From the NCBI GenBank assembly GCA_964383505.1, contig CAYLHB010000002.1, forward strand, positions 1-61,811: DNA of 61,811 nucleotides, read 5' to 3'. The notes beneath the pieces are model-generated. The model was not told the origin of the DNA. It worked only from the letters and a program-made list of their open reading frames with translations, and ran no database searches. Of this stretch, positions 12,997 to 36,541 are shown in pieces (position 1 is the stretch's first letter; each line of letters opens with the position of its first letter). Source of the DNA: an uncultured Candidatus Saccharibacteria bacterium (lineage in GTDB: Bacteria > Patescibacteriota > Minisyncoccia > Phycocordibacterales > UBA12088). A program made the position numbers and the translations under genes.

Positions 12997-13030
12997 AACA
13001 ACAAAGCACCCGTCTGGGTGCTTTGTTGTT
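12997..13030 (-). terminator. Hairpin closing the left repeat copy
   Basis: AACAACAAAGCACCC-GTCT-GGGTGCTTTGTTGTT perfect stem. It is the positional equivalent of the hairpin at 38012-38044. Confidence 0.5.
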
Positions 13031-13225
13031 CTGGATACTGCTCTCAGCAGGTATGCAATTACGGAATAGAGTCTGTGAATGACTTTTGGGAAGTTTCGAG
13101 CCCATGACTGGTTCTCAAAACTTCTTGACCGAAACGGCGATTTTAGCCGTCTCAGTAGGTCTCACATGACTGCTGACTGTCACGGTCCAGAACCTGTGCA
13201 GCAAAGCACCGTAAGCATAACATAT
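13028..13225. repeat. Left imperfect direct repeat of the island (putative att region)
   Basis: 13036-13060 TACTGCTCTCAGCAGGTATGCAATT is identical to 38049-38073. Lower-identity similarity continues rightward into a decayed tRNA-Gln T-arm look-alike (GGTCCAGAACCT). Confidence 0.7.
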
Positions 13226-13342: not shown

Positions 13343-13367
13343 AAGGGGCGACTAGGTCGCCCCTTTC
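13343..13367 (-). terminator. Intrinsic terminator of the nucleotide operon
   Basis: Minus strand has GAAAGGGGCGAC-CTA-GTCGCCCCTTTTTTC overlapping the kinase-like gene stop. Confidence 0.7.
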
Positions 13368-14002
13368 AGGAACTTCGATTGCAGGATTCTCCACCCTGCT
13401 TCGATAGTATCATCGGCATCCATTGCTGAAGTATCGATAATATCGACAGCAGGAAAAAAACGACGAGTAGTCTCAAGCAATTTTCGATCATGTCTCATCA
13501 CGAACTCGGGGTCAGTGAAGGACATAAAGTCGCCAGGTGTGTTTGAACCTGGATGCTTGGCTTCTCGTTCTTGCACCCTCACCTTGCGCACATCGATACT
13601 GGCAGTGAGATAAATCACACTACCGAACCGTGGATGTGCCTCGAAGAGGGCGTCTGCAAGCTCGGGAATTATCGGAGTCTCTCGCATGAGATTGTACGAA
13701 ATCGTCCGGAGCCAGCAACTATCCTGCAAATGAACAACGCCTTCTTCGGGCGGTTTGAACAAGGTGGTGTCGTACAAATGCGAAGCCAGAAACAGCGCAC
13801 CGGTTTCCAGCATGGTGGTATGAGCACCTACTGCATACCGCTTTGCTTTTTTTCCCACAGGGTTTTCACCAAGCAGGTTATTCTTGGCACGCATAACTTT
13901 CCATCCTTGCTCGCGAAGCTTGACAGACAAACCTTCACAGAGAGTTGTTTTGCCTGCCAAATCCAGACCCTCAATGAGGATCATTCGATCTTGGTACTGC
14001 AT
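13352..14002 (-). CDS. P-loop (d)NMP kinase-like protein (thymidylate-kinase-like)
   Basis: MILIEGLDLAGKTTL resembles the Tmk P-loop IEGL(D/E)GAGKTT. 216 aa, with RBS TAGGAGGG upstream. Confidence 0.65.
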   Translation of the reverse strand: MQYQDRMILIEGLDLAGKTTLCEGLSVKLREQGWKVMRAKNNLLGENPVGKKAKRYAVGAHTTMLETGALFLASHLYDTTLFKPPEEGVVHLQDSCWLRTISYNLMRETPIIPELADALFEAHPRFGSVIYLTASIDVRKVRVQEREAKHPGSNTPGDFMSFTDPEFVMRHDRKLLETTRRFFPAVDIIDTSAMDADDTIEAGWRILQSKFLKGAT

Positions 14003-14089
14003 ATACAGTCCCTCCTATGAAGTTGAACTGTTTATGATTATACAACGATATTACCGTGTTTGCAAACAAAGAAAAATTGCTTCCATATC

Positions 14090-15451
14090 GAGTCTGTAAA
14101 ATATTTTGTGTAAATGGATTATCCACCGTACTCTAGGAGTACTATCCATTCACACCCATGAACCACACAACCACGAGCGATCAAAGCATCGCTACCCTTC
14201 TTGGCACCGACGAGTTCAAGGAAAAGGCAAAACAGCTTCGCACCCTCTCGGACGTCACCGCGTTCGCCAAGGAGCTCATAGCTCCAACACTCCAGAAGAT
14301 GCTTGAAGCGGAACTCGACGAGCACTTGGGATACAAGAAGCACGAAGTAGTCGGTCGAGGTACCGGCAACTCACGAAACGGCCACAGTCAAAAGAAGCTC
14401 AAAACCTCGTTCGGTACCGCAGAGCTTGCGGTACCCCGCGACCGCAATAGCACCTTCGAGCCGGTCGTCGTGAAGCGGTACGAGACCGTGGAGAGCGACG
14501 TTGAGGAGCGCATAATCTCGATGTACGCCAAAGGATTGACGACTCGCGACATCGCTACCCACATGCACGACATTTATGGTATCGACGTATCGAGTACCAT
14601 GATTTCAACAATCACCGACAAGGTACTCCCCCTGGTCTCCGAGTGGCAGCATCGACCCCTTGCATCTTGCTACGCACTCGTGTCCCTCGACGGTATCTAC
14701 TTCAAAGTGAGAGATAGTGGCAAGATTGTGAACCGTACCGCGTACATTGTTTTGGGCACCACCCTGGAAGGTGTGCGGGATATCCTGGGTATTTGGGTTG
14801 GGGAGAGCGAGGGTGCAAAGTTTTGGATGCACGTCCTCACCGAGATCAAGAACCGTGGAGTGGATGATATCCTGATTGCATCCATAGACGGACTCACGGG
14901 GTTCACGGACGCGATTCGTGCCGTATTCCCTGAAACTGACGTACAGCAGTGCATTGTCCACCAAGTGCGGAATACCATGAAGTATGTGCCCCACAAACAC
15001 AAGAAAGCGTTCGTGAGCGACCTTCGCTCAATCTACACCGCACCAACCGAGGGAGCTGGGCTCAATGAACTCGAACGGGTGAAGGATGCGTGGCCACAGT
15101 ACGCTGTATACCTTAAGAGCTGGGAGACCAAGTGGGGTGAGCTCTCCGCCTTCTACAAGTATCCGCCCGAAATACGGAAGATCATGTACACCACAAACGG
15201 TATCGAAAGCCTGAACCGCCAGTTCCGGAAGGTCACCAAAACGACGAGTATTTTCCCGCACGAGGAGTCACTTATGAAACTGCTCTGGCTTGCGCAGCGG
15301 GATATTACCCGACACTGGACTATGCAGGTCCGTGACTGGGGCACAATCGTGAGCGCGCTTGCGGTTTTGTATCCAGAGCGGGTGAAGCTTGATTAACGTG
15401 ACGCGCGCGTATGATTATCAACCCCGTTTACACAAAAGTACTTGCACACTC
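14090..15451 (+). mobile_element. IS256-family insertion sequence (1362 bp) with 8-bp target-site duplication
   Basis: Terminal inverted repeats GAGTCTGTAAAATATTTTGTGTAAATGG (left) and GAGTGTGCAAGTACTTTTGTGTAAACGG (right, reverse complement) match at 21/28 positions. It is flanked by TCCATATC at 14082-14089 and 15452-15459. Confidence 0.9.
14158..15396 (+). CDS. IS256-family (mutator-type) transposase
   Basis: 412 aa. LDEHLGYKKHE, GNSRNGHSQKKLKTSFG..L.VPRDRNSTFEP and C-terminal NGIESLNRQFRKVTK are typical of IS256 transposases. Confidence 0.9.
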   Translation: MNHTTTSDQSIATLLGTDEFKEKAKQLRTLSDVTAFAKELIAPTLQKMLEAELDEHLGYKKHEVVGRGTGNSRNGHSQKKLKTSFGTAELAVPRDRNSTFEPVVVKRYETVESDVEERIISMYAKGLTTRDIATHMHDIYGIDVSSTMISTITDKVLPLVSEWQHRPLASCYALVSLDGIYFKVRDSGKIVNRTAYIVLGTTLEGVRDILGIWVGESEGAKFWMHVLTEIKNRGVDDILIASIDGLTGFTDAIRAVFPETDVQQCIVHQVRNTMKYVPHKHKKAFVSDLRSIYTAPTEGAGLNELERVKDAWPQYAVYLKSWETKWGELSAFYKYPPEIRKIMYTTNGIESLNRQFRKVTKTTSIFPHEESLMKLLWLAQRDITRHWTMQVRDWGTIVSALAVLYPERVKLD

Positions 15452-16074
15452 TCCATATCCCCTATCCCATTTAGCCTGAGTTGTTCAGATGAGACGACTA
15501 GGTTGAAAGAAAATTCTTTTAATGCCGCTTCAGGTTTAATTTCGAGATACGAATCGTCTATCCACCATTTCACTTTAGGGAGCCTGAATCGATCAAGAGC
15601 GTCTGCGGCTCTTAAATATTTAGACAATGGCCTCGTATCCTTTAAGATCAGAAGTATCTGGTTCAAAAGCGGATGTTGAGCGAAATGTTCCAAAAGCCAA
15701 GTGATTGCTCTATCCTCGTGACCTTCGTCGCCTTTGTCATCCATACGCTGTGTGTCATGAACAGAACAGGCTATTAATAGAGCTTCCCTATCTCTGTCAT
15801 TAATCAATCCTCTAGTCAGAAGGGTGGCATAAACCATTACTCTCACTGTGTGCGCAATTCCATGAATAGACGACACGATCTTAGGATTAACATACCAGTC
15901 TGGTTTCGGTGATAAATCCTGAATCAAAGAAACCTCTCCGGCAGTTAAATAATAGTTGGTATGAAGCATCCGATATTCAGGTTTATTCTCTTTAATTCTA
16001 TCAAGAGTCTCTTGATCCATATTCTGAATATCAGGTTGTAACCTTTCTTGAGCTAATGACCAGAGACTTGTCAT
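15418..16074 (-). CDS. HD-domain phosphohydrolase-like protein, native C-terminus displaced by the IS
   Basis: HGIAHTVRV ... CSVHDTQRMDD gives an H...HD pattern. The last 10 codons (SVQVLLCKRG) are read from the IS terminal repeat. Confidence 0.6.
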   Translation of the reverse strand: MTSLWSLAQERLQPDIQNMDQETLDRIKENKPEYRMLHTNYYLTAGEVSLIQDLSPKPDWYVNPKIVSSIHGIAHTVRVMVYATLLTRGLINDRDREALLIACSVHDTQRMDDKGDEGHEDRAITWLLEHFAQHPLLNQILLILKDTRPLSKYLRAADALDRFRLPKVKWWIDDSYLEIKPEAALKEFSFNLVVSSEQLRLNGIGDMESVQVLLCKRG

Positions 16075-16652
16075 AATGATTTTAATTCATACAAATCCTT
16101 ACTGTACAAGATAAGTGAACCGACTTGATGAACATATGAACCTGCACTTACCCCGAGTTTAGATCCTACATATTTTTGCAAAGCAATCCCAAAACACACA
16201 TCTACTGGCAGTAGTTTTAGTAATTCATTTGAGCGCATGTGAACCACCGTAAACAGTTTGTCACTATTAATGTAAAAATGAATGCCAACCAAACAAGGAA
16301 CTTCGCCAGAGGCTCCAAAAATATAATTATTATCCCAAAGACTTAGATATGCCTTTTTACTATTCGGGTCATTCTGTAAACACTCAATGATACTTGAAAT
16401 TTCATTCTGCTTAATGATTTGATTGTAGTGCGATGTTTCAATATTAAAAACATCATCCTTTTCAGCATGAGAAAACGCTAACCCATCATATAAAATAGGG
16501 TTTTGAAAAGACTCAGGATGCAATATCTCAAAGTGTGCTGACTCTTGAAATATATGTTTACCTTGAGGATTATTTTCGCCTTTTAAATGCTCTTGGACTT
16601 GCTTAATACATGCAAGGTAAAGCTCATCAACTGATTCTGCTTTTATATTCAT
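16071..16652 (-). CDS. Minimal thymidylate-synthase-fold protein (193 aa)
   Basis: It aligns by eye to the ThyA core: LQNDPNSKKAYLSLW (LKNDPDSRR..SAW), VPCLVGIHFY (APCHAFFQFY, catalytic Cys), and HMRSNELLKLLPVDV (YQRSCDVFLGLPFNI). It lacks the ThyA LLWFL folate helix, and GGDTHLY is replaced by VGSLILY. Confidence 0.65.
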   Translation of the reverse strand: MNIKAESVDELYLACIKQVQEHLKGENNPQGKHIFQESAHFEILHPESFQNPILYDGLAFSHAEKDDVFNIETSHYNQIIKQNEISSIIECLQNDPNSKKAYLSLWDNNYIFGASGEVPCLVGIHFYINSDKLFTVVHMRSNELLKLLPVDVCFGIALQKYVGSKLGVSAGSYVHQVGSLILYSKDLYELKSL

Positions 16653-16658
16653 ATAATC

Positions 16659-17765
16659 CTATTTTACACGCAACACAGACTGAGCATTAGGTATTAAGAG
16701 TGGTACAATTTTTACGTCAACAGTATCGCCCACATCAACAACTCCGTTTATAAACGTCGCCCTATAGACATCTACTTCGTTATTAAACATAATTCCCATC
16801 TCACCCTTTGGGATTGTATCGTACTGGAGTAAAACTACACCTTCTTTATCACTCAACATAGAATCCACACCTATTTGCTCGATACCACTACGTAAATCTG
16901 CAGGGGAGTTTTTCAACATTAATCGACCTAATATTGCGTTTGGTTTATATTTCAAATCACTTAAATAGAATCGAATTCGAGCACACATAAACAAAGTAAA
17001 GTCATCAGAATTAAAAGTAGACATTATCTGACGTTGTTCTCTCAAATTAGATATGTGAATGGTCGTATCAGTAACAAAATGTGTAGTACTGAATGAAGTT
17101 TTTAGCTTTGGGGTAACGTCGAATAAGTAATTTTTAACCGCTTTTGCATACACTTCACCTTTCACCGCATAATCTAGCGATACTTTTGAATCCTGTTTTA
17201 TATAGAGGTATTCGTTTAGGCTCTCAAAATAAACATGCTTCAGTGCTGAAAACTTTGTAAAAAAGGTAACTATCTCGTTTAGGAAAAGGTCTCGCTTAAG
17301 GTCTATGAGGCTATCAATATCAGATAATGCTTGTCTATATAAATTCAAAACTTCTGGGGTACTTTCCGTGTCAGTATAGTATTCGCTCTCAAAGATATAA
17401 TTTATCTTTCCTTGGATTAATGAATTTCTGTACTGCATTTCTGACATTTCAAAAACCAAACACTCAACCTTGTTGGTGTTTGATGATTGAGGTATTTCCA
17501 CGTCAAAAATATATTGCCCTAGGTTATGTACACGGCCATCTGAATGCACAGGAGTAACGTATACGACACCGAACAAACCGCCTCCACTGACGTTTATTCT
17601 TCCAGATTCCAAAATGGATTTTATATTCGGAGAGAAGTGTACAAATCTAAATGTATTATCAGAATTTTTCCAACTTAATTCACTATCATTAAAACCCTTA
17701 CTTTTAAGCTCATCCAATAAGTATTTATTCCAACCTTCGCGAGATGTAAGTTTGTCATAATTCAT
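16659..17765 (-). CDS. Hypothetical protein (368 aa); weak H-Y-E ADP-ribosyltransferase-like N-terminal motif pattern
   Basis: FVHFSPNIKSILESGRI ... GGGLFGVVYVTP ... YIFDVEIP resembles the H-x-(S/T) / aromatic-Y / E arrangement of DarT/Tpt1-type folds. This is motif-level only. Confidence 0.5.
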   Translation of the reverse strand: MNYDKLTSREGWNKYLLDELKSKGFNDSELSWKNSDNTFRFVHFSPNIKSILESGRINVSGGGLFGVVYVTPVHSDGRVHNLGQYIFDVEIPQSSNTNKVECLVFEMSEMQYRNSLIQGKINYIFESEYYTDTESTPEVLNLYRQALSDIDSLIDLKRDLFLNEIVTFFTKFSALKHVYFESLNEYLYIKQDSKVSLDYAVKGEVYAKAVKNYLFDVTPKLKTSFSTTHFVTDTTIHISNLREQRQIMSTFNSDDFTLFMCARIRFYLSDLKYKPNAILGRLMLKNSPADLRSGIEQIGVDSMLSDKEGVVLLQYDTIPKGEMGIMFNNEVDVYRATFINGVVDVGDTVDVKIVPLLIPNAQSVLRVK

Positions 17766-17768
17766 AAA

Positions 17769-19208
17769 CTATATTTCCTCTGTCACAATTCTCTTCCCGA
17801 ACCAGCTATTTTTTGCAGCCAATGATCTGTATATTCCTGAGAAAACAACAGCTGTACGATGATGATCCAAGAAATTTGAACGCTGGTTCTCTGGTTCAAT
17901 ATCCTTATCAATATAATCAAAAAATTCTTTAATACAGATACGTCGAGCCTCCTCCTGATGTCCACGAGAGTACCCCTCAAGTTCAAAGCTCATTAAGTCC
18001 CGCACGTTGATTATTTCTACTGGTTTCCATTCAGGAAAAAGTTTATTATTTCTAAAAATAATAATTTCTAAGTGACGCTCTCCCCCTATTTCAAAGTGAT
18101 CGCTATTTTCTTCTAAAATCTCCTTTGACTGATAAGAATTAACAAAAATTGACTGGAATGGACCCTGCTCAATTACATGCTGTTCTTGTCGTACACGACC
18201 GTTTCCTTTGTACAAATCTCTCCCTTCAGCAGTCGCCCAATCTCTTTGACCGTATCCAGTATGGGCCAAGTTAAGGGTACCAAGAGTAATAACCTGCCCA
18301 TCTCGCTTGAATGTAATGTTTCCAGCTACATCAATTTCGCCAAAAGAGCGCATCAAACTCTTATACTCATTTCCATACTTAAAGTACTTGTCAGAATCTT
18401 TAAAAAGACGTTTATGATCGTCAATACTAAGTTGAGCGATAAAATCGGCGGGTCTACTGCTCTGACCATATATTTCTACACTATCAACTGCTTTATCTCC
18501 TTTATGTGTGAGATTGGTAAATTCACACAAAACATCAACCGAGTGATACCCTGAATGAGAAAGTTTTCCATAACCAGAATTATACGGATGATAGTCCTGT
18601 TCGATGATTTCATCTGGAAATCTCCACTGACCATCACAGTGGAGTGAAGACATTAGCGTAACAGGACAGTTCGTTTTGGAAAAAATCTCTTTTATTGCAT
18701 TCCTCGCAACATCATACGCAGTATGAAATCGTCTTTGAGCTAATATTGTGAAAACTACATTTTTGCGCTTCAAGACTTGCTGATATTTATCTTCGATAAG
18801 TCTGTACTCCTCAAGATTTCGCTTCGCTATCTTGAGTGAATTAGCAATTTTTGCAGCAGTTGAAATTGGCTTATCGAGTAGGATATGCAACTCCTTATCC
18901 AATGCCCACATTGAATACTCAAAGTGAGAAAGTGGCTCGGTGGCAATTAAAACAACACCTACTCCGTGTCTCTGCACAATTTCATCAAGCAATTTTCTCC
19001 AAACCTTACTGTCTTTCTTTTGCTCATTAGATAAAAAATATAACTCTGGAGAGACATTATGATCGCCAACATATTTGGTGATCAGTTCCCTTTCCTGCTC
19101 CACGTCAACAACCGCTACCAACTGAGCTGTGTTGGACAGCTCTTTTAAGATTGGTACGTGGATTCTACGAGCATGATAGCCCAATCCAATAAGTAAAACT
19201 TTATGCAT
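17769..19208 (-). CDS. Gfo/Idh/MocA-like NAD(P)-dependent oxidoreductase with a long divergent C-terminal domain
   Basis: N-terminal Rossmann fold KVLLIGLGYHARRIHVPIL ... VVLIATEPLSHFEYSMWALDKELHILLDKPIS (an EKP-like motif read as DKP). Confidence 0.6.
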   Translation of the reverse strand: MHKVLLIGLGYHARRIHVPILKELSNTAQLVAVVDVEQERELITKYVGDHNVSPELYFLSNEQKKDSKVWRKLLDEIVQRHGVGVVLIATEPLSHFEYSMWALDKELHILLDKPISTAAKIANSLKIAKRNLEEYRLIEDKYQQVLKRKNVVFTILAQRRFHTAYDVARNAIKEIFSKTNCPVTLMSSLHCDGQWRFPDEIIEQDYHPYNSGYGKLSHSGYHSVDVLCEFTNLTHKGDKAVDSVEIYGQSSRPADFIAQLSIDDHKRLFKDSDKYFKYGNEYKSLMRSFGEIDVAGNITFKRDGQVITLGTLNLAHTGYGQRDWATAEGRDLYKGNGRVRQEQHVIEQGPFQSIFVNSYQSKEILEENSDHFEIGGERHLEIIIFRNNKLFPEWKPVEIINVRDLMSFELEGYSRGHQEEARRICIKEFFDYIDKDIEPENQRSNFLDHHRTAVVFSGIYRSLAAKNSWFGKRIVTEEI

Positions 19209-19626
19209 TTAAGTGTTTTATAATCTTACTGGCCGCTTTAACATTATCCTCCTTTTCAAGTGTCTTAAACAACATATCTTTGTCGCACCATCGCAAATCA
19301 TCATGCTCGTCCGGTGCTAGTGTTACTTCAACACCAGTTTTAACTTCAACTGCATATACAAACTCTCGAATCTTTGTCTCACCTTTCATCCATTCAAAAT
19401 CATAAAACGGGCCTTCAATTTTAATGATATTTTCTGAATCAATACTGCACTCCTCTTTAATTTCGCGAGTTATTGTGCCAATCAAACTCTCGTTATCATG
19501 AACAGTACCAGTAACTGTCTGCCAAAAACCGCCATCGTCAGGAACTCTCTTGATACAAAGAAACTCAACACCTGCATCCGTCAATTGATATACAAAGGCA
19601 TTTACTCGAATAGGTAACTTGGTCAT
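19201..19626 (-). CDS. Nudix hydrolase, NudB-like
   Basis: Nudix box GTVHDNESLIGTITREIKEECSI. GFWQTVTG matches NudB DFWQSVTG. The stop overlaps the downstream start by 8 nt. Confidence 0.8.
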   Translation of the reverse strand: MTKLPIRVNAFVYQLTDAGVEFLCIKRVPDDGGFWQTVTGTVHDNESLIGTITREIKEECSIDSENIIKIEGPFYDFEWMKGETKIREFVYAVEVKTGVEVTLAPDEHDDLRWCDKDMLFKTLEKEDNVKAASKIIKHLNA

Positions 19627-19730
19627 GACTAGAGAATTAAACGTATAAGTATGGCTACTTTAGCATATTTTACAGTTAAATAAAGCTGTGGTTTATTGTT
19701 TTCTGATATTTCTCGTGCATAATTGCATTA

Positions 19731-20177
19731 ATGCAATACCTTACGTGGGAAGATTTAAACAGCAGTCAGAAGTCACTTCTTGAGACTGCCAAAGCCAATG
19801 CTGAAAAATCAGTAAGCCAAAATGGTCACAAGGTGGGCTGTTCGATCTGTGGCGAGAACGAGACATACAACGGATCAACAATATCTCATCCTAGAATTAT
19901 TGGTTCAACATGTGCTGAACGCATGGCTATCGATCACCTTCTTATCGATAATGATAAGCCAAAACTGTGCGCAGTCGTAGGTAAGCTTAATCGTGAGAAC
20001 TGGACAAAAGATAATCTTTGTACACCATGTGGACTTTGTCTTGAGATGTTTTGGGAATTACAAATGAAAACTGGCATTGATGATATAGACTTTCTTTGTG
20101 CAAATTGGGATTTAGATAGAATCCTGAGTATTAAACTTTCTAAACTATTCCCTCGCTTTGAAGCTGTGAAGCGTTAG
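19731..20177 (+). CDS. Cytidine/deoxycytidine deaminase-like protein (CDA fold)
   Basis: Zinc motifs CAERMAI and TPCGLCLEMF (C-A-E ... P-C-x-x-C). 148 aa, as in homotetrameric CDAs. Confidence 0.7.
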   Translation: MQYLTWEDLNSSQKSLLETAKANAEKSVSQNGHKVGCSICGENETYNGSTISHPRIIGSTCAERMAIDHLLIDNDKPKLCAVVGKLNRENWTKDNLCTPCGLCLEMFWELQMKTGIDDIDFLCANWDLDRILSIKLSKLFPRFEAVKR

Positions 20178-20203: not shown

Positions 20204-21535
20204 CTACATACGATTCTTCTTACGTTCCCGAGTAGCCTTCACCTTCTCTCGATGTAAACGTCGAGCCTCGTCCTTCTCCTTTCGCTCCGCTTCACGCTGT
20301 GCCATTTCTTCGGGCGGTATCACTCGAAGATAATCCATGATCTTGTATCCCTTGAGGATTTCGTGCGGATCGCCGAAGTGATACCACGGGTGCATCTGGT
20401 TCCACTCCTTACCGTCTTTCATCTCCTTAACCATATGCGACTCAAGAAGTTTCTTTGGAGGCAGAAAGTCCTTGTTGTCCTTGATTAGAAACAACTGGGC
20501 ATGCACACCCTCGCCATAGTGCGAGACTGTTCGTGCCTTTAGGATACCTTCCTTCACCCACTTATTGAGTGTCTGACCTTTCACATTGAAGTAGTGCTCA
20601 AAGTCATACTTTCGATACCAACTATCTTTGTTCTTGGCGAGTGATGCGGAAATCTCACCTTTATCAATCGCTTTCTGACAAACCAGACACTTCACGCCCC
20701 ATTTGTCGTACCAGTTATCACCCTCTGGCGTACTGCCGTGACAGATGGCACACGTATACCCAGCGCCCTCACGATGGAATCCTTTTGGTTCTTTTTCGAG
20801 TCGTTCAACAAGTAGCTTTTCCTTTTCCTTCCATTCATCCATAAACCTACCTGCTTGCTCCATACCCCATTTCATCTCTGAAAACTTGCGACCCTCCTCT
20901 TCGGAGAGACAGTATCGACCACGATCTTCGGCAAAGTGTTCGTCGTATTCATCCTCGTGCTTTGGCCAAACCATCTCATCTCTTTCTATATACTTACACT
21001 TCGCACAGGTGTATGTAGTAACAAGTTTTGTACCATCGTCATCGGCAGTATGTTTGGTTGGTGAGTCACATTGTTTACAGACGTGCTGTTTGATCCGCCA
21101 CTCTTCACCCGTATTGAAAAATGCCCGACGAGGCAGGCATTTGTTTGGACAGTCATACATGAAGAGAACACGTTCTGGTTTGTCTCCGTCGTGCCAGAGT
21201 TGCTTGAAAGTTGGAGTGTGGCGATTGCGACAGGTAAGGCATCGGATGTCTTCGGGAGCTTGAGCATTTTCGTAGAGATCATCAAGCGTCTGGTCGCTCG
21301 CCATCCATTCCTGGATTGTTTTATCCCGATTCAGATAGCGTTCACCCCTTTCGAAGGTAAGTATGAGATTATGCGCCCACTCTCTGATGGCTCGGTCTTG
21401 CTCCTTGCTCATCTTCTTATTACGAGATGGTGAATCATCTTTGACATACCGTTTTTCCATACCACGACAACGCTCAACTGTATATTTGTCGTACAGGTCG
21501 ATATAGTATTGACGGTCTTTAAGATGTTTGCTCAC
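20204..21535 (-). CDS. Multi-zinc-ribbon protein with a possible C-terminal HTH (443 aa)
   Basis: Repeated CxxC pairs (CLTCRN, CKQCDS, CAKCKY, CAICHG, CLVCQK). The segment KGQTLNKWVKEGILKA resembles an excisionase/MerR-type HTH. It has a Lys/Arg/Glu-rich tail. Confidence 0.55.
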   Translation of the reverse strand: MSKHLKDRQYYIDLYDKYTVERCRGMEKRYVKDDSPSRNKKMSKEQDRAIREWAHNLILTFERGERYLNRDKTIQEWMASDQTLDDLYENAQAPEDIRCLTCRNRHTPTFKQLWHDGDKPERVLFMYDCPNKCLPRRAFFNTGEEWRIKQHVCKQCDSPTKHTADDDGTKLVTTYTCAKCKYIERDEMVWPKHEDEYDEHFAEDRGRYCLSEEEGRKFSEMKWGMEQAGRFMDEWKEKEKLLVERLEKEPKGFHREGAGYTCAICHGSTPEGDNWYDKWGVKCLVCQKAIDKGEISASLAKNKDSWYRKYDFEHYFNVKGQTLNKWVKEGILKARTVSHYGEGVHAQLFLIKDNKDFLPPKKLLESHMVKEMKDGKEWNQMHPWYHFGDPHEILKGYKIMDYLRVIPPEEMAQREAERKEKDEARRLHREKVKATRERKKNRM

Positions 21536-21584: not shown

Positions 21585-22472
21585 TTAATCTTTGATCCAA
21601 ATGGGTACGACAGCATTACCCAGCACAATACCGTGAATGAGTGCATCTCTGTTATCAAAGGAATTAGTACCGACGTAACTCAACAAGAAAGCCTTCATGA
21701 GTGCTTCAACACGATGATAAAAAGTGAATTCTTCGGTACGGGTACTGAACACCTTGCATTCCCAAACCTTCCCATGCATCACCCAGTTACGAACATCCTT
21801 TATGTCTGTGAGAAAAGAATCTATTGGCTTAGTGTTAGTGTATTGTGCTTCAAAACCGAACTTTTGAACCGCGTACTTTAAGTAGTCGATATAGTGCAGA
21901 TTCCCCGGAACATTCTTGGGGTTCTTTATGTTGCTATCTAAACAATAAAGACTTCGGCAAAACAGCTCTATTGGCTGAAGATACCAAACATCTTTCAAAT
22001 CGCTATATGGTGTAAAAAGCTCCGCTTCGAACAATAGACCGAGACTTTTAAAAAAGATGCGACGTTCGTTATTAGAAAAACTATCCAGTTTTTTAATCGT
22101 GCTGTCTAAATATGCCTCAACTTCCTTTACGCGTAGAAGAGGCCAATCATATGTCTTTCCGCCGATCCGAGCAAACACCTCACTACCTCCTTCCTTATCG
22201 TCGTATGGAAAGATGTGTCGAGACTGAAAAAGTGCAAGCAAGGCACAGTAATCCCATATCTTCGGCTGCGATGGATAAAAATGTGACTTAGTGAGATCAA
22301 GTCCCGGTTTTTCACATACTATTGTTGAACGAAAATTTACGTTTCTTGAAAATCTGTTTTCCTTTTCATATTCCTTGTATCCATTTTCAAAGTCCACAAC
22401 GGGTTCAAATCGATAATGTGTTGTATCGATAACATTTGGGAGGTGGACGTTGTAGAGATAGAGTTGTCTCAT
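21585..22472 (-). CDS. HEPN-motif protein (Abi-like), 295 aa
   Basis: ATG at 22472 (MRQLYLY). The C-terminal DIKDVRNWVMHG carries an R-N-x3-H (Rx4H) HEPN signature. The upstream part of the 358-aa ORF overlaps the preceding gene. Confidence 0.55.
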   Translation of the reverse strand: MRQLYLYNVHLPNVIDTTHYRFEPVVDFENGYKEYEKENRFSRNVNFRSTIVCEKPGLDLTKSHFYPSQPKIWDYCALLALFQSRHIFPYDDKEGGSEVFARIGGKTYDWPLLRVKEVEAYLDSTIKKLDSFSNNERRIFFKSLGLLFEAELFTPYSDLKDVWYLQPIELFCRSLYCLDSNIKNPKNVPGNLHYIDYLKYAVQKFGFEAQYTNTKPIDSFLTDIKDVRNWVMHGKVWECKVFSTRTEEFTFYHRVEALMKAFLLSYVGTNSFDNRDALIHGIVLGNAVVPIWIKD

Positions 22473-22494
22473 AATCTTCAATATACAAACAGCC

Positions 22495-23322
22495 TTAAGA
22501 AGTGCTATTGGTCGATTCAGATTCGAGTCTAAATAGATGGTTGAGTAACAAAAACTCAGATAGGTACTCCTGTGAATCACTTTGACGCTCTTTATGTGCA
22601 CGCGGATTTCGATACGCGGAATATGCATTGATAATAATGTTTGCCCTTGCCTTCTGCTCACCTTCGCTAATTCCGTTCCAGCTTAACCTTGAGTTTTGTT
22701 TGAGAAATGCTTCGGTGAATAATTTCGCTCCAATCTCGTAGCTACCAGTCCTTAGTCGGACAGCATCTTCAAATCTCCTATATCCATCCATAAGGTTGGT
22801 GTCAGGGTGCTGCCAAAATGAAACAGCAAGATCAATAATCCGTGGATCGATAATCGCATACGGAATAACTGGCCGAAATTCCTTCCACAAATCTCCTACT
22901 CGAGCCGCATCAAAATGTTGCGTTTCAATGTATTCGTATATGCGAAGCGGCCTTACTGGATTAAGCGCCTTTATCTCTTGAACATCAGCAGTTGTTAATG
23001 CCGAATGATCAAGTCGCTCTAGCATAGAATTATTTATTTCAAACTCGTCAATGTTGATACCGTGCTCCATTAGCAAGGCAAGCGCGTACGAAAATTTGCG
23101 TGGACCCTCGCCGGTGTAGCCGCTCGCAAAACCTGATTTAACTGCAATAAGTTCTATCGGTTCTACGGTGATAAGTAGCCCGTGCCTTCCTCTAGATGTA
23201 AGGATATGTACTTTGGATAGCTGATCGTTGTACTGCAATAGACGTACTACAGCATCAAGACATGTTTGTGTTATGCCTGCCTCACCCCAATATTGAATTC
23301 TTGCTAGTTTGGCATCACGCAT
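22495..23322 (-). CDS. TIGR02391 (Ymh-type HEPN) family protein with an unknown N-terminal domain
   Basis: The C-terminus GAKLFTEAF...EGEQKARANIIINAYSAYRNPRAHKE...EYLSEFLLLNHLFRL matches my recollection of the TIGR02391 pattern, with an RNPRAH Rx4H motif. Confidence 0.65.
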   Translation of the reverse strand: MRDAKLARIQYWGEAGITQTCLDAVVRLLQYNDQLSKVHILTSRGRHGLLITVEPIELIAVKSGFASGYTGEGPRKFSYALALLMEHGINIDEFEINNSMLERLDHSALTTADVQEIKALNPVRPLRIYEYIETQHFDAARVGDLWKEFRPVIPYAIIDPRIIDLAVSFWQHPDTNLMDGYRRFEDAVRLRTGSYEIGAKLFTEAFLKQNSRLSWNGISEGEQKARANIIINAYSAYRNPRAHKERQSDSQEYLSEFLLLNHLFRLESESTNSTS

Positions 23323-23329: not shown

Positions 23330-26300
23330 TTACACAGGCAAGTACTCCCAGTACACCCGCACCGTCTCTTGGTATATCGAGTCTATCAGCCGTTCAGTTT
23401 GTACAAGCTCAGTGAAACCCTTCTGAAGCAAGAGCAGACGTACGTTCTGACGAATCCGCGCTTTGATCGTCTCGTTGTTTGTCCAATCAATCGCTAAGTC
23501 ACGACGAATACGCCTCGTCAGTTCTTTAACAAAATCCTTAATATCGATACCTGCTTTTTTGAGATCCGGGTCAGTCACTAGGGTGTCATAAAAGACCACC
23601 TCCTCTTCAGAAAGCCCTAGCTCCCTACTCTCCTCGTCGAGCTTCTGTATATCATCGGCAATAGCAAGCAGGTGCTTGATGATCTCTGCGGAACTGATAA
23701 CGTTGTTCTCGTACTTCTCGATAAGGTCGGTTAGGAGGGTGAGCATGGTTTCGTATCGAGCTTTGTTGGTACGAGAGCGAACCTTAATCTCTTTGTCGAG
23801 CATCTTCCGCACCGTATCAATAGCAAGATTTTGATACTTCGATTTATTGATCTCCTCAGCAAACCGCGCGTCAAATATCGAGATGATCTTTTTCTCCTCG
23901 CCTTCTTTGGTAAAGAGGTCAATCACGCCCTCGGCCTGCACCGCATCTTGCACTAAGCTTCGGATAGCACTCTCGGTCGCTTCAGGAAAGATGATATGGG
24001 GAATCACCGTCTGCTTGTGTAAGGCATCGCGAATAGACTGGAAAAACTGCACATCCGTCGCAATCTCCATCGCTTCAGAGCCTGGCATCACAAGCGCGTG
24101 AAGGTTGGAAAGCTTTGACACCGCACCCATGTACGCCATTTTACGATCATCCGACAGATGGCCTTGCTCCGAGACAACCTCATTCATTGCGGATTGGAAC
24201 AACTCTACCAGCTCGATCCCCTTTTTCTGCCTCCACCCGGAAAAGTCGATAGCGGCAAAATACTGCAACACGTCCCCGTGAAGTTTCTTCATTGCGCGTA
24301 TCACCTCATCAAGCGGTATCATCGCCTCTTTCTGCACATCCGCATCATAGATTGCAAGTGCCTTCTTGAGATTTTCCGCAACACCTATGTAGTCCACAAT
24401 CAAACCGCCCGGCTTATCTTTGTAGATACGATTGACCCGTGCGATCGCTTGCATGAGTCCATGATTCTTGAGTGGCTTATCGAGGTACATGGTATGCAAA
24501 CACGGCACATCAAACCCGGTGAGCCACATATCGCACACGATGGCGATGCGCAAAGGGTCGCTCGCTTTCTTGAAGCGCTTTTCAAGCTTCTTCACGTCAT
24601 GTTCTGGCTGCAACTGCCCCGCAAAATCATCCATGCCGGATATGATCACCGCGCATTCGGGTGCCCCAGGTATCTTCTGTATCGCTTGGTATACCGCGAC
24701 GGCAATAGCGCGGCTCATGGTCACCACCATCGCCTTTCCTTCTATGGGTCGATTGGTAAAGTGGGAGACTATATCTTTTGATATTGTTTCGATACGATCC
24801 GGTGTACCCACCATCTGTTCGAGTACCGCCCATTCTTTTTGTACCTTTATTCGCTCATCGATAACGATCTCACCCAATATCTCATCGAGCTTGCTATCAA
24901 CAAACTGGTCTGCAAGGTGAAGTGGAATAAGTCGCCCCTCGTAGTAGATAGGCACGGTTGCATTATCCTTGACCGCTTGGCCTATCTTGTATGAACTCAC
25001 CACATCGCCAAACACGCGCATGGTATCACGACTATGCTGTGATATTGGTGTTCCGGTCACCCCCAAAAAGCTCGCATTCGGCAAGGCCTGACGTACGTTA
25101 CCCGCAAGCATGCTGTATTGGGTACGATGTGCTTCGTCCGTAAGGACAATGATGTTTTCCCGATCGGTAAGGGCCGCGTTCGCATCTGGATCGTCTTGGA
25201 ATTTCTGAATGGTGGTGAAGATAAGTTCGGATCCCAGGTGTGAGAGTCGGTCTTTCAAGTCTCTAATGCTTGAAGCGCGCTTCGCGAGCGTGCCGTATCC
25301 CGTACGACTAAATGTTTTGAATAGTTGATCGTCGAGATCTTCGCGGTCAGTGAGGAACACATACGCCGGACTTTTAAGTTCATGGATCCGCTTCGTCTTG
25401 TTCACGTAGAACACCATCGATAATGATTTGCCCGACCCCTGCGTATGCCAAAAAACGCCAATCTTCCGCTCTTGTTCACCTAGGACCGATCGTACGGTAC
25501 TGTCGATGGTCTTATTCACCCCATAGTACTGGTGGTACAACGCCATTTTCTTGGTGTAGGTCACCGCATCACCGTCGCCGTCTGCCTCAAACACGGTGAA
25601 GTTTTGTATCACATCAAGCAAACGGGCTTTATTGAAAAGACCATTTGCGAGCACTTCGAGCTCTGTCGCGCTCTTTGGCGCATCACTCTCCGACTCGATC
25701 CCCTTCCAGGTACCATACCGCTCCCACGAGGAGGATATGGTGCCATGACGGGCATCGGTAAGGTCACTGAGGCAAACAACCTGGTTGTACAGAAAAAGCT
25801 TTGGAATTTCCTTTTTGTAGTACTCCATGTCACGGTACGCCTGCCCGATGGTCGCCTGCTCACGCACGGGGTTTTTGAGTTCAAATACCGCAAGCGGAAT
25901 ACCATTCACAAATACCACACCATCAAGACGGCAAACATTCTCGATACCTTGGACTGTAAATTGATTGACGATCAAGAACTCATTCGCATCTACATTTGTG
26001 AAATCAATCAACTTCACAACTTCGGTCTTTTCCTCACCATTCTCTCGCCACGTCTTCTTCACTCCCTCGGTAAGGAAAGTAAATATTTCCTTATTGCCGA
26101 GGACAATATCGGCATTGTGGTAGCTCGCGATATCAGCAACCACTTGTTCTGCCTGTTCAGCAGGAAGCTGAGGATTAAATCGATGAACGGAAGTGAGGAG
26201 GCGATTCTTTAAGACCACCTCATTAAAAAGCGCCCGCTCCGCACTGGGTTGTTTTGGGGCAATGTCTGGTCCGTAGGCATACTCATAGCCCTCGCCTTGA

Positions 26301-26353
26301 AGCCATTCTATGAGCGACTGCTCAGTTAAATTGTTTTCGTTGAGAGGATTCAT
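23330..26353 (-). CDS. hsdR: Type I restriction enzyme R subunit
   Basis: 1007 aa with helicase motifs (HTQGSGKS, TDEAHRTQY, GVTGTP). The start overlaps the hsdM-S stop by 4 nt. Confidence 0.9.
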   Translation of the reverse strand: MNPLNENNLTEQSLIEWLQGEGYEYAYGPDIAPKQPSAERALFNEVVLKNRLLTSVHRFNPQLPAEQAEQVVADIASYHNADIVLGNKEIFTFLTEGVKKTWRENGEEKTEVVKLIDFTNVDANEFLIVNQFTVQGIENVCRLDGVVFVNGIPLAVFELKNPVREQATIGQAYRDMEYYKKEIPKLFLYNQVVCLSDLTDARHGTISSSWERYGTWKGIESESDAPKSATELEVLANGLFNKARLLDVIQNFTVFEADGDGDAVTYTKKMALYHQYYGVNKTIDSTVRSVLGEQERKIGVFWHTQGSGKSLSMVFYVNKTKRIHELKSPAYVFLTDREDLDDQLFKTFSRTGYGTLAKRASSIRDLKDRLSHLGSELIFTTIQKFQDDPDANAALTDRENIIVLTDEAHRTQYSMLAGNVRQALPNASFLGVTGTPISQHSRDTMRVFGDVVSSYKIGQAVKDNATVPIYYEGRLIPLHLADQFVDSKLDEILGEIVIDERIKVQKEWAVLEQMVGTPDRIETISKDIVSHFTNRPIEGKAMVVTMSRAIAVAVYQAIQKIPGAPECAVIISGMDDFAGQLQPEHDVKKLEKRFKKASDPLRIAIVCDMWLTGFDVPCLHTMYLDKPLKNHGLMQAIARVNRIYKDKPGGLIVDYIGVAENLKKALAIYDADVQKEAMIPLDEVIRAMKKLHGDVLQYFAAIDFSGWRQKKGIELVELFQSAMNEVVSEQGHLSDDRKMAYMGAVSKLSNLHALVMPGSEAMEIATDVQFFQSIRDALHKQTVIPHIIFPEATESAIRSLVQDAVQAEGVIDLFTKEGEEKKIISIFDARFAEEINKSKYQNLAIDTVRKMLDKEIKVRSRTNKARYETMLTLLTDLIEKYENNVISSAEIIKHLLAIADDIQKLDEESRELGLSEEEVVFYDTLVTDPDLKKAGIDIKDFVKELTRRIRRDLAIDWTNNETIKARIRQNVRLLLLQKGFTELVQTERLIDSIYQETVRVYWEYLPV

Positions 26354-28854: not shown

Positions 28855-29105
28855 CCTAGCACAATGTGTTGCTAAATGCAACTTAACATGTGTAAAGTTG
28901 CGTGGCACCCTGTGTCCTGTATACTACAAGAGGTTCCAACGCAAAACGACGACCCTCTCGCAAAAAAGGAAGTCGTCGCTATGCGGTAGCCTCTGCAGTC
29001 GGGGTGAACGTTGGTGCGTTCTGACTGCCGAGTACAAAGGGTCTGTACCCCTGTTCCTACAGCCTACACACCCCACTGCACATTACAAGCACCAGCATCT
29101 AATAA

Positions 29106-30609: not shown

Positions 30610-31186
30610 GGTGTTGCTTGCGGTTTAGCCGATGGCCGGATGCACAAAGCCCGCCACCAGGAGAGTCCGAAGACTCCTACCAGAGTTTCCCCTGATAACG
30701 CAAGCAACGCCCTGAATGACGGGTTCTCTACGTTGCTTGCGATTCTTAGACCATGCCGCCAGCATGTGCTGATGGTTTAGGTCCTGCCCCTTTCGGGATT
30801 ACTATTCAGTTGTACACTAAGAGAATAGCGCACAATTGAGCTCCCGTCGACTCTAGGGGTACCCTAACTTAGCTTCGGACGGTTGCGAAGCTTGCATCTC
30901 AAACCATGTGTGCTGTAAACTAAATGCAGTCCAGTGAATTCGTTCACCTTTCGCGCCAAAACAAAATGAGGCGGCGAGATGCAATGCATCTTTTGAGTCG
31001 AGGCAGTTGCCGGGTGATGGTCGTCTAACGGCTATCTACCAAGGGGCCATTGACGGAGGTAACAAACGTAACCAATCATGGTTAGTGTTTGTTGCATCCG
31101 TCGAGTGTCTCTACAGACGTATGCAAAAACACCAACCACAGCGTTGGTGTTTTTGCTGGACTGATTACCAACTAATCAGTCACAGT
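30610..31186. other. 577-bp structured non-coding spacer (candidate ncRNA, regulatory region or pac/ori-like region)
   Basis: No credible ORF. GTTGCTTGCG occurs at ~30612 and ~30733, with its complement CGCAAGCAAC at ~30699. There is an internal hairpin GGAGAGTC-CGAA-GACTCC. The spacer ends in a plus-strand terminator. Confidence 0.45.
31123..31156 (+). terminator. Intrinsic terminator just upstream of the ParB-MTase gene
   Basis: GCAAAAACACCAAC-CACAGC-GTTGGTGTTTTTGC with a U-rich 3' side. Confidence 0.7.
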
Positions 31187-35077: not shown

Positions 35078-35146
35078 CGGTTACCAACTTAAGGAGGTTC
35101 GGGCACACTAGACTGTTGGGGCGTGTTGCGTCATTCATTGTGGTGT

Positions 35147-36541
35147 ATGGAAACAACACAAAAGCCAGCGGCGGGTCTGGCACAAGGAATAGACCCCACA
35201 GCGATAAAATACTGCCTCTATGCCCGGAAATCGACCGAACAAGAGGATAAACAGGCCCTATCGATAGATTCGCAGGTGCGCGAAATGGTTGCCCTTGCAG
35301 AACGAGACGGGCTGGAAATAGTGGAGATTAAGCGAGAATCACATTCCTCGAAAGAAGTAGGTCAACGACCCGTATACAACGAACTGATTAGTGAAATCAG
35401 ACAAGGTAAGTTCAACGGGATACTCACTTGGGCACCAGACCGACTCTCTCGCAACGCTGGCGACCTTGGAAGCGTCGTTGACTTGATGGATCAAAAACTC
35501 CTTCACGAGATTCGCACATATGGACAGAAGTTTACGAACAACCCGAACGAGAAATTCTTGCTAATGATCCTTGGGTCGCAAGCTAAGCTCGAAAATGACA
35601 ATAAGATGGTGAACGTGAAGCGAGGACTCAGGGCACGGTGCGAAATGGGTCTGTGGCCTTCTGTGCCGCCAACTGGATACTTGAGTCACTCGGACAGAAA
35701 CAGGAAGTGCGAGGTTATGATCGACGAACTACGTGCACCCGTCATCAAACAGATGTTTGAGAAAGTAGCATATGACGGGTGGTCGGGACGAAAGATCTTT
35801 AAGTGGCTATCGCATGAAATGCGGTTCACAACAAAGCATGGGAAGGCGCTGACCCTGAGTAATATTTACTTAATTTTTAAGAGTACCTTCTACTACGGCG
35901 AGTTTGAATATCCAAAAGGAAGCGGTCAATGGTACACAGGAAAACACGACCCAATCATCACCATGGACCTCTTCAACCTCGTCCAAAAGCAGGTCACCAC
36001 TGATCATCTGGTACGGGCGCAGGACAAGGAATTTGCGTTCACTCGTATGATAACGTGCGGGCTTTGCGGGTCAGGTGTGACCGCTGACGAGAAGTTCAAG
36101 AAACTAAAAGATGGTACCCTCGCCCGCTACGTGTACTACGGATGTACGAAGTTCAAAGATAAGAATTGCCCGTGCGGATACCTACGTGAAGATGACCTGA
36201 TTGAACAGCTCGCCAACATTCTCGACACGGTGGCGCTCGACGAGATTGGTATGAAAGACAAAATCAAAGCTGAGATCGAATCACACAATGAATTTCAGGA
36301 GTCGGTGCTTGGGCAGAAATCAGCAAAGGTGAAGGTGCGGGAGGTAGACATTAGGAACTACGCGAAGCACATTCTACATAAGCGGCCGATTTATGAGAAG
36401 CGAGGGCTGCTCAGTTGCTTAAAAAGCAGGCTGGTTCTTGCAAACAAAAGTATCTTTCTACTTAACAACACTTCTTGTAACAGCGCAGTCCCAAATAAGT
36501 CGAGAACCGTCACTCACTTCGCCAAAGGCGATTGCGCTTAG
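35147..36541 (+). CDS. Large serine recombinase (integrase)
   Basis: Resolvase catalytic segment CLYARKSTEQED...SIDSQ and WAPDRLSRN. It has a recombinase domain and a zinc ribbon CGLCGS...YYGCTKFKDKNCPCG. The ORF is open from the GTG at 35123. Confidence 0.85.
   Translation: METTQKPAAGLAQGIDPTAIKYCLYARKSTEQEDKQALSIDSQVREMVALAERDGLEIVEIKRESHSSKEVGQRPVYNELISEIRQGKFNGILTWAPDRLSRNAGDLGSVVDLMDQKLLHEIRTYGQKFTNNPNEKFLLMILGSQAKLENDNKMVNVKRGLRARCEMGLWPSVPPTGYLSHSDRNRKCEVMIDELRAPVIKQMFEKVAYDGWSGRKIFKWLSHEMRFTTKHGKALTLSNIYLIFKSTFYYGEFEYPKGSGQWYTGKHDPIITMDLFNLVQKQVTTDHLVRAQDKEFAFTRMITCGLCGSGVTADEKFKKLKDGTLARYVYYGCTKFKDKNCPCGYLREDDLIEQLANILDTVALDEIGMKDKIKAEIESHNEFQESVLGQKSAKVKVREVDIRNYAKHILHKRPIYEKRGLLSCLKSRLVLANKSIFLLNNTSCNSAVPNKSRTVTHFAKGDCA

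Follow-up and report, generated by a model that had tools for sequence, protein, structure and literature searches.

The operon and its junctions

We describe here a compact operon of predicted nucleotide enzymes carried by an uncultured Candidatus Saccharibacteria bacterium (contig CAYLHB010000002.1). The window is the whole 61,811-nt stretch of DNA that was analysed, and coordinates without a locus name are positions in it. A preliminary description, made from the sequence alone, had placed six minus-strand genes, a divergent deaminase gene, their junctions, a spacer and a terminator. The open reading frame (ORF) list shows the seven ORFs at exactly those coordinates, and the remaining features agree with the sequence and the fold score. 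The features are as follows.

13343-13367, minus strand: intrinsic terminator that closes the operon, with the kinase stop codon inside its loop
13352-14002, minus strand: kinase-like gene (216 aa), the last gene of the operon
14090-15451, plus strand: IS256/Mutator-family insertion sequence (IS), outside the system
15418-16074, minus strand: HD gene (218 aa as it stands)
16071-16652, minus strand: thymidylate synthase (TS)-like gene (193 aa)
16659-17765, minus strand: unk368 gene (368 aa), no assigned family
17769-19208, minus strand: GFO gene, encoding GFO-480 (479 aa)
19201-19626, minus strand: Nudix gene (141 aa)
19627-19730: divergent intergenic spacer (104 bp, AT-rich), the presumed promoter region of both transcription units
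19731-20177, plus strand: cytidine deaminase (CDA)-fold deaminase gene (148 aa), divergent from the operon

The Nudix and GFO genes overlap by 8 nt (19201-19208), gaps of 3 nt and 6 nt separate GFO from unk368 and unk368 from the TS-like gene, and the TS-like and HD genes meet in an ATGA overlap (16071-16074). A promoter scan of 19627-19730 gave no specific call above the shuffle background. The terminator (GGGGCGAC-CUA-GUCGCCCC, followed by a U-run) folds with -20.1 kcal/mol (z = -5.1), a stability reached by 0 of 200 shuffles; a simple terminator scanner overlooked this hairpin. Together these features support the earlier proposal of a single co-transcribed unit of nucleotide enzymes. Its domain calls also hold in Pfam and NCBIfam, where all family matches are those of weak or divergent members, and the catalytic motifs are intact in the Nudix, CDA, HD and kinase proteins. 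Six cassette genes (15452-20177) have 34-41% G+C, compared with ~55-57% in the flanking chromosome. The kinase gene (13352-14002), at 49%, lies above the other six, yet the kinase is among the best-conserved proteins of the set.

The IS (Transposase_mut, 2.7e-114), present as one copy in the window, has termini of 28-nt imperfect inverted repeats and is flanked by an 8-bp target duplication (GATATGGA). It lies 11 codons before the HD stop, splits the kinase gene from the operon and supplies the last ~10 residues of the present HD protein. Its removal in silico, with one copy of the duplication, yields an HD C-terminus (...EAIFLCLQTR) like that of the related locus L010, together with the previously proposed 48-nt HD-kinase spacer with AGGAGGG ahead of the kinase ATG. 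The uninterrupted arrangement is found in locus L002, with a 47-nt spacer. The insertion has probably impaired the operon in this genome: with a changed HD C-terminus and a kinase gene separated from the operon promoter, the window copy may be partly inactive.

Conserved linkage in bacteria and archaea

The arrangement recurs in 15 distinct loci, termed type-E, from bacteria of the Candidate Phyla Radiation (CPR) and from DPANN archaea, and every contig long enough to judge has the same neighbourhood around unk368. GFO is present in 15/15 loci, each time with unk368 next to it. HD and Nudix genes are each found in 14 (the HD exception is a contig end), the TS homologue in 11, and a P-loop kinase in 12 (thymidylate-kinase-like in eight, another P-loop kinase in four). 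The CDA gene is confined to CPR bacteria (6/15 loci, counting the gene called in L003) and is divergently placed in L002, L003, L006, L010, L011 and L016. A NodU/TobZ-type carbamoyltransferase is confined to DPANN archaea (5/15 loci), and the archaeal version also has a methyltransferase that we label FkbM-like from a reading of its sequence. In L001 and L005 an S-adenosylmethionine (SAM) methyltransferase gene lies between unk368 and HD. Since the linkage recurs in CPR and DPANN loci, the cassette crosses the boundary between bacteria and archaea. The genes are thus conserved in their linkage across unrelated genomes, and are not the scattered core-genome salvage genes that the preliminary description had named as the contrary outcome.

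Homologues of unk368 are few. A word search found 19 among 5.8 billion proteins and a profile search 166 representatives among 1.84 billion proteins; scanning metagenome contigs with the unk368 alignment gave four loci, one of them already in the set. We found no description of the gene combination, the GFO-480 family or unk368 in the searchable literature (defence, CPR and natural-product contexts), PADLOC or NCBIfam, and the system models of PADLOC-DB 2.0 gave no system match to the seven proteins. The statement that the set matches no housekeeping pathway stands: no such pathway and no PADLOC system fits. In L011, the one locus on a long contig (559 kb), genes for serine hydroxymethyltransferase (SHMT), three Nudix proteins, a kinase resembling deoxynucleoside kinase (dNK) and thymidylate kinase (TMPK), and MazG lie within 2-6 kb after the cassette (L011:15990-19665), so that enzymes of the nucleotide pool are locally clustered.

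GFO-480, the predicted core enzyme

GFO-480 matches Pfam GFO_IDH_MocA (PF01408, 5.6e-11) over residues 3-129, that is, in the N-terminal Rossmann part only. The GLGYHA and DKP motifs are kept across 20 diverse members, as expected of a Rossmann NAD(P)-binding protein. The single sequence has no match in the PDB by phmmer, and the family profile aligns there through residues 71-136 only, to GFO enzymes such as 3e18 and DgpA. Beyond residue ~136 the C-terminal ~340 residues match nothing in the PDB or Pfam, so that a C-terminal domain of a known type is not seen. This part is family-specific and has long invariant motifs. The family comprises >513 homologues, with the motifs YHPYNxGYGKxSHSGYH, DLYKGNGR and SRGHQE. 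GFO is conserved far better than its cassette neighbours, with 86% identity in a comparison in which unk368 has 52%. By its motifs and profile matches, GFO-480 is a genuine but very divergent Gfo/Idh/MocA NAD(P) oxidoreductase and the predicted core enzyme of the cassette. Of the two proteins previously left unassigned, the 479-aa protein accordingly has a family (a divergent GFO family of more than 500 members), whereas the 368-aa protein remains without a family or structural analogue.

With one genome scanned per species, at least 189 of 185,579 species carry GFO-480, most of them CPR or DPANN; elsewhere its occurrence is sporadic (Xenorhabdus, Erwinia, Alteromonas, Streptomyces, Lentzea, Actinosynnema, Pedobacter, Archangium and others). 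A scan of 2.9 million viral contigs (IMG/VR) gave no member of the family. Clustering of neighbours was carried out for 83 distinct loci, among which a Nudix gene is present in 40, a P-loop kinase of the nucleoside monophosphate (NMP) type in 45, and both in 35. By far the most neighbours encode enzymes of nucleotide metabolism or of natural-product tailoring, and they further include Ham1, HIT, carbamoyltransferase, glycosyltransferases, aminotransferase, an inositol monophosphatase (IMPase)-like phosphatase and exporters of the major facilitator superfamily (MFS) or ATP-binding cassette (ABC) type. One subtype has a dCMP-type deaminase and a SAM methyltransferase; another GT8, GT2 and an O-methyltransferase; a third an aminoglycoside phosphotransferase (APH)-like kinase, a ComB-type phosphatase and a radical-SAM enzyme; and a fourth a nucleoside-2-deoxyribosyltransferase-like protein, a thiamine pyrophosphate (TPP) enzyme and an alpha/beta hydrolase.

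In six loci from Xenorhabdus bovienii, Erwinia, Alteromonas and a member of the Chlamydiales (L056, L057, L058, L059, L061 and L064), GFO-480 occurs with a SAM methyltransferase and a carbamoyltransferase. Five of these, all except the Chlamydiales locus, also encode an MFS exporter, and in Xenorhabdus, the one locus annotated, a class I/II aminotransferase gene lies next to the MFS gene. From its gene content, this cluster looks like an uncharacterised natural-product cluster. The Lentzea locus encodes an IMPase-like phosphatase and an ABC exporter, and in L043 a single 634-aa ORF (L043:377-2281) joins an N-terminal GFO-480 to a C-terminal Nudix domain (residues 507-614). The common denominator of the GFO-480 loci is nucleotide handling with natural-product-style tailoring.

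The TS homologue

The TS homologue matches Pfam Thymidylat_synt (4e-11) and falls far under the cutoffs of the TS equivalogs in NCBIfam. Its family profile scores best against the CMP 5-hydroxymethylase MilA (1.3e-16), followed by the small TS entries 9iqu and 9iqc (234-238 aa, 1e-15). Alignment by hhalign to E. coli ThyA covers only ThyA residues 112-215, and the homologue ends soon after the Tyr209 region. Within it the catalytic Cys is kept (C146 = C120), and Leu143, Asp169 and Asn177 are replaced by E117, E143 and D151; with Asn177 and Leu143 both replaced, the protein is not a ThyA proper.

In TS homologues, N177D marks cytosine substrates and L143D/E a non-methyl product, and D169N is diagnostic of the flavin-dependent 5-hydroxy-dCMP synthases (Lee et al. 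2026, PMC13326640). The window protein has both the cytosine signature, N177D, and the non-methyl signature, L143E. Its position 169 is Glu, as in close relatives, and is Asn in L005, L006 and L014. In the printed alignment 9iqu and 9iqc carry N177D, L143E and D169N; from these residues our guess is that they are linked to the phage HY126 hydroxylase of PMC13326640. The TS homologue is presumed, from these signatures, to be a (d)CMP C5-hydroxymethylase or C5-hydroxylase, two activities that cannot be told apart here because position 169 is Glu in the window and Asn in three relatives.

Nudix, kinase and deaminase

The Nudix protein (Pfam NUDIX, 1.2e-13) has NudB as its best NCBIfam match (2.4e-17, under the curated cutoff) and 3son and NudB 2o1c as its PDB matches, and its translation retains a complete Nudix box. 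As it resembles NudB and dATP pyrophosphohydrolase, its presumed reaction is the cleavage of (d)NTP into (d)NMP and pyrophosphate. It also resembles the single-gene PADLOC candidate PDC-S07 (1.6e-9).

The kinase matches Pfam Thymidylate_kin (2.8e-7), phrog_761 (3e-9) and TIGR00041 (2e-8; 34 bits against a cutoff of 83), and in the PDB its family profile finds only thymidylate kinases (5xb5, 1e-5). The P-loop and the LID arginines are kept, with QDS..LR in place of DRY, so the protein differs from Tmk at this motif. It is 96% identical in L002 and L010, and matches PADLOC PDC-M51B through the P-loop only. We treat the protein as TMPK-like, not as Tmk, and presume that it phosphorylates a modified NMP to the diphosphate.

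The deaminase matches Pfam dCMP_cyt_deam_1 (4e-7) and, in the PDB, best the tetrameric cytidine deaminases 1r5t and 3dmo. Its CAERMA and PCGLC motifs align to the CAE and PCGxC zinc/catalytic motifs of 1r5t, which places it among the tetrameric CDAs. Its substrate may differ from cytidine, as the NCBIfam equivalogs score under their cutoffs.

The unk368-HD pair

For unk368 there was no match at the Pfam curated thresholds, in NCBIfam or in PADLOC; the only hit is phrog_1058 (E 0.0066). The AlphaFold2 (AF2) model is confident, with a predicted local distance difference test score (pLDDT) of 90 and a predicted template-modelling score (pTM) of 0.91, and Foldseek found no match to it in the PDB and BFVD (best E 0.7, template-modelling score (TM) about 0.1). 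Passing resemblances of unk368 to a TenA- or haem-oxygenase-like helical bundle, a macro-domain GGG loop or the H-Y-E of ADP-ribosyltransferases were dropped for lack of structural support. For a reading centred on NAD/ADP-ribose (SidE-phosphodiesterase-like fold, Nudix, GGG loop), nothing in PMC9503650 speaks in its favour.

The HD protein scores 0.009 with Pfam HD, under the cutoff. Its family has invariant H71/H75, H106-D107 and D158/D161 and many basic residues, and the AF2 model (pLDDT 91.6) is all-helical, placing the H...HD...D residues on a helical fold. Foldseek matches are of low significance, the best being SidE-family phosphodiesterase (PDE) domains (probability about 1, E 1e-2, TM 0.47), with the HD hydrolases 3djb and YpgQ also found. 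By its motif and helical fold the protein is classed as a metal-dependent phosphohydrolase of the HD/PDE superfamily. When the GFO, HD and unk368 sequences were searched against the PDB, only generic Rossmann and HD matches came back.

In other lineages the two proteins are fused in both orders, unk368-HD in P0147 and HD-unk368 in P0158 and P0199, the fused parts being recognised by reading the HD motifs. These fusions are strong evidence that unk368 and HD act together. Pfam found no extra domain in the long unk368 fusion proteins. A further protein, P0281 (646 aa), has an unrelated N-terminal extension of ~390 aa without assignment.

A mobile island

The operon lies at the left edge of a low-G+C island of ~25 kb, which is flanked by imperfect direct repeats of ~140 nt (13027-13165 and 38041-38174; 93% matching over 43 nt, 85% over 71 nt), the right one abutting tRNA-Gln (38181-38252). 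The repeats look like attL/attR of an integrative element. Other features in the island are listed below.

23330-26353: HsdR of a type I restriction-modification (R-M) system
26350-28908: HsdM-S fusion of the type I R-M system
35123-36541: large serine recombinase

Two N6/N4 DNA methyltransferases, described as orphan-like, are also encoded. The direct repeats, tRNA-Gln, recombinase and type I R-M genes show that a mobile island beside R-M genes had been correctly recognised from the sequence. The cassette is accessory and horizontally mobile, as seen from its low G+C, its island with repeats and a recombinase, its occurrence in both domains and its sporadic distribution.

Next to the CDA gene, a 443-aa protein (20204-21535, minus strand) has several CxxC pairs, a lysine-rich C-terminus and no family match. 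Over its last 150 aa it shares 71% identity with the product of an L010 gene (206-718) that is likewise convergent beside CDA, and by this similarity it may travel with the cassette. Between cassette and hsdR lie two minus-strand ORFs (21585-23322), one of 358 aa with a weak HEPN_Apea-like match and one of 275 aa with a TIGR02391 match; the 167-nt overlap between them makes it probable that one start or both were called wrongly. A LOOT RNA (Rfam RF03000, 75 bits, E 2e-12) lies at 30662-30783 on the minus strand, between the type I R-M and methyltransferase genes.

Proposed pathway

We propose that the operon is a biosynthetic cassette for a cytidine nucleotide modified both at C5 of the base and on the ribose, a reading to which we give a probability of roughly 0.55 from the sequence evidence and the analogies drawn below. 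The data show how the operon is built, that its linkage is conserved, which proteins are fused, which active-site signatures they carry and that the cassette is mobile and accessory; the order of steps, the oxidised position, the product and the biological use are inferred. In the first step, the Nudix enzyme would strip (d)CTP to (d)CMP, and in the second the small TS-fold enzyme would place a hydroxymethyl or hydroxyl group on cytosine C5. GFO-480 would then oxidise a ribose hydroxyl, most likely the 3'-OH, as Pur10 and other GFO enzymes that oxidise C3 suggest by analogy. In the fourth step the unk368-HD pair, probably as a complex, would process the intermediate by elimination, dephosphorylation or rearrangement. 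The TMPK-like enzyme would re-phosphorylate the product to the diphosphate, and housekeeping Ndk would convert this to the triphosphate. The CDA would act on the free nucleoside, either in self-protection (as does blasticidin S deaminase) or in recycling. The expected product is a non-canonical pyrimidine nucleotide that polymerases would incorporate or be blocked by. Two further chemistries that were considered, ribonucleotide reductase-independent 2'-deoxygenation and elimination of the base via 3'-oxidation, are speculative.

Several observations weigh against this proposal. None of the seven proteins (0/7) reaches an NCBIfam equivalog cutoff, GFO-480 is likened to Pur10 by described function and not by sequence, and unk368 is left without assignable chemistry after the Foldseek search of PDB and BFVD. 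Cofactor and product of the TS homologue are uncertain because of the Glu at D169 and the lack of the folate-binding N- and C-terminal parts, and three relatives carry Asn there, the 5-hydroxylase signature. The host tolerates disruption of the operon by the IS, and the type-E loci include no exporter, sensor or regulator. Finally, L011, L014, L007 and L001 lie among housekeeping or unrelated genes (L011 between ComEC and superoxide dismutase (SOD)/SHMT, L014 beside GatB, RbfA and IF-2), a setting also compatible with salvage.

Possible biological roles

As a functional special case of the proposed pathway, the cassette could serve in anti-phage or anti-plasmid defence, making a chain-terminating or polymerase-poisoning nucleotide that, once triphosphorylated, would block replication or transcription of viruses like viperin's ddhCTP, with the deaminase and Nudix limiting self-harm; we regard this as a tentative possibility. 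Defence genes abut 4 of about nine informative bacterial type-E loci: type I R-M and HEPN-like genes in the window, type III R-M in L003, IetA in L010, and, adjoining the cassette in L002, a PDC-S37/Hhe helicase, a Cas4-like protein and an Mrr type IV enzyme. These four independent loci, the mobile, low-G+C and sporadic nature of the cassette, the resemblance of its Nudix to PDC-S07 and a strip-modify-re-phosphorylate layout that suggests an NTP end product all favour such a role. However, the informative loci number only about nine, variable regions often carry R-M genes in any case, and the other six proteins match no PADLOC model. The loci show no obvious trigger or sensor, and a cell that made a terminator constitutively would poison itself. 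The GFO-480 relatives in cultured bacteria sit with exporters, which points to secreted metabolites. The defence reading of the preliminary description is plausible but not established: four loci adjoin defence genes, and others are embedded among housekeeping genes.

A bolder synthesis, which we consider rather unlikely as a whole, is that GFO-480, Nudix, kinase and unk368-HD constitute an unrecognised, widespread CPR/DPANN family of NAD-dependent ribose-editing cassettes, whose polymerase-blocking or otherwise non-canonical nucleotides would serve as weapons in immunity or antagonism. They would then parallel viperin without depending on radical-SAM chemistry, and would centre on an enzyme of new fold. 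If the proposed pathway is right, the smallest known cells would carry a diversified toolkit for editing both sugar and base of nucleotides, with new enzymology in the form of a nucleotide-acting GFO subfamily, a fold without solved analogue and a minimal TS-fold cytosine modifier. Such cassettes might also yield natural nucleoside analogues, compounds to which many antiviral and anticancer drugs belong, and would be relevant to defence and host manipulation by episymbiotic CPR and DPANN organisms. At 6-7 genes and about 5.5 kb, the cassette is small enough for synthesis and direct testing.

Secretion of a nucleoside-antibiotic-like secondary metabolite, directed at the host cell or at competitors of the episymbionts, appears doubtful. 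It fits the enzyme set as well as do the two hypotheses of the preliminary description, a modified-nucleotide product and DNA hypermodification. Blasticidin S deaminase is a resistance enzyme of the CDA fold, and the CDA would here confer producer resistance. The GFO-480 clusters of Xenorhabdus, Erwinia, Alteromonas and Lentzea combine MFS or ABC exporters with tailoring enzymes, the archaeal type-E loci add the NodU/TobZ-type carbamoyltransferase and FkbM-like methyltransferase, and the best match of the TS homologue, MilA, belongs to mildiomycin biosynthesis. Yet no type-E locus has an exporter gene, the terminal NMP kinase suggests an intracellular nucleotide and not a secreted nucleoside, and the very small CPR/DPANN genomes rarely carry biosynthetic gene clusters.

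Hypermodification of DNA or RNA at the level of the nucleotide pool is improbable. As in T4, dCTP would be destroyed and 5-substituted dCMP made, re-phosphorylated, incorporated and possibly decorated, giving protection from nucleases. The Nudix (as dCTPase analogue), the cytosine-type TS homologue, the dNMP-kinase-like protein and the deaminase mirror the T4/RB69 module; the TS signature fits 5-hydroxymethyl- or 5-hydroxy-dCMP synthases, other GFO-480 subtypes have glycosyltransferases and methyltransferases, and the window operon adjoins R-M genes and orphan-like methyltransferases. However, GFO-480 is absent from the 2.9 million viral contigs, the cassette has no recognisable DNA-binding or DNA-transferase component, known DNA hypermodification pathways contain nothing equivalent to GFO, unk368 or HD, and the deaminase is of the nucleoside (CDA) type and not of the dCMP-deaminase type. 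To our knowledge, wholesale base replacement has not been described in cellular genomes.

Lineage-specific salvage, for example of scavenged cytidine nucleotides to thymidine or deoxy-nucleotides where de novo synthesis is lacking, is very improbable. CPR and DPANN organisms depend on salvage, the last enzyme is thymidylate-kinase-like, and the nucleotide enzymes around L011 (SHMT, three Nudix, dNK/TMPK, MazG) and the position of L014 by GatB, RbfA and IF-2 would suit it. The distribution is nevertheless sporadic and not lineage-wide (unk368 in 166 of 1.84 billion proteins, GFO-480 in at least 189 of 185,579 species genomes), the window copy has atypical G+C, an island location and an IS disruption, L011 has a separate TMPK/dNK gene, and Asp151 and Glu117 of the TS homologue speak against a dTMP synthase of the plain kind. 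Pure depletion of the nucleotide pool, as previously suggested, is unlikely because the set holds modifying and re-phosphorylating enzymes.

Comparison with known systems

In puromycin and 3'-amino-3'-deoxyguanosine (ADG) synthesis, Pur10 is an NAD-dependent ATP dehydrogenase, Pur7 a Nudix enzyme and Pur3 a phosphatase (PMC11641026, PMC9239236), and the ADG cluster is a small low-G+C island (PMC9239236). The cassette resembles the puromycin/A201A/cystocin and ADG pathways (Pur10/AdgB, Pur7/AdgD, Pur4, Pur3) in pairing the gene of an NAD-dependent oxidoreductase, here proposed to act on a nucleotide ribose, with an adjacent gene for a Nudix NTP pyrophosphatase. An IMPase-like phosphatase lies beside the cluster in L003 and L004 and beside GFO-480 in Lentzea. 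Unlike these pathways, the type-E loci lack an aminotransferase (Pur4) and a Pur6-like synthetase, the base chemistry would be that of a pyrimidine and not a purine, and the NMP kinase, HD and unk368 are extra.

Cordycepin synthesis involves a kinase, an HD phosphohydrolase and an oxidoreductase, the last two of which interact tightly (PMC8869658). The same triad of P-loop kinase, HD protein and oxidoreductase (Cns3, Cns2 and Cns1 of Cordyceps/Aspergillus) is present in the cassette. The cordycepin HD protein works in an obligate pair with its partner (PMC8869658), as the cassette HD is fused to unk368 in some lineages, and deamination bears on the fate of the product in both. In contrast, the cordycepin pathway is fungal and makes a purine product, its HD protein pairs with the oxidoreductase where the cassette HD pairs with a protein of unmatched fold, and it includes neither a TS homologue nor a Nudix enzyme. 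The cassette was compared with Cns1 and Cns2 by description only.

Phage modules for cytosine modification comprise, in T4, the dCTPase gp56, the dCMP hydroxymethylase gp42, the dNMP kinase gp1 and the deaminase cd, and in RB69/DLP3 a 5-hydroxy-dCMP synthase and a dNMP kinase. An NTP pyrophosphatase, an N177D/L143E TS homologue, an NMP kinase and a deaminase are shared with the T4/RB69 modules. The cassette differs in being cellular, in its Nudix enzyme in place of a MazG/dUTPase-like one, in its CDA-type deaminase and in the Glu at D169, and the phage modules lack counterparts of GFO, unk368 and HD.

Among the CMP hydroxymethylases of the MilA/BcmA type, from the small-molecule settings of mildiomycin and bacimethrin, MilA is the best-scoring solved relative of the TS homologue and shares with it the Asp at N177. 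MilA is, however, 325-342 aa long compared with 193 aa, and the type-E loci lack the N-glycosidase (MilB/BcmB) and the rest of those pathways. Prokaryotic viperins are likewise small accessory cassettes, often in defence islands, in which a nucleotide kinase assists in turning a pyrimidine NTP into an analogue altered on the ribose. Unlike them, the cassette encodes no radical-SAM viperin, its chemistry would be NAD-dependent and its defence role is only conjectured. Set beside all of these systems, the cassette, two proteins of which lack characterised relatives, is best read as a variant of the nucleotide-modifying and nucleoside-analogue cassettes that belongs to none of the known ones.

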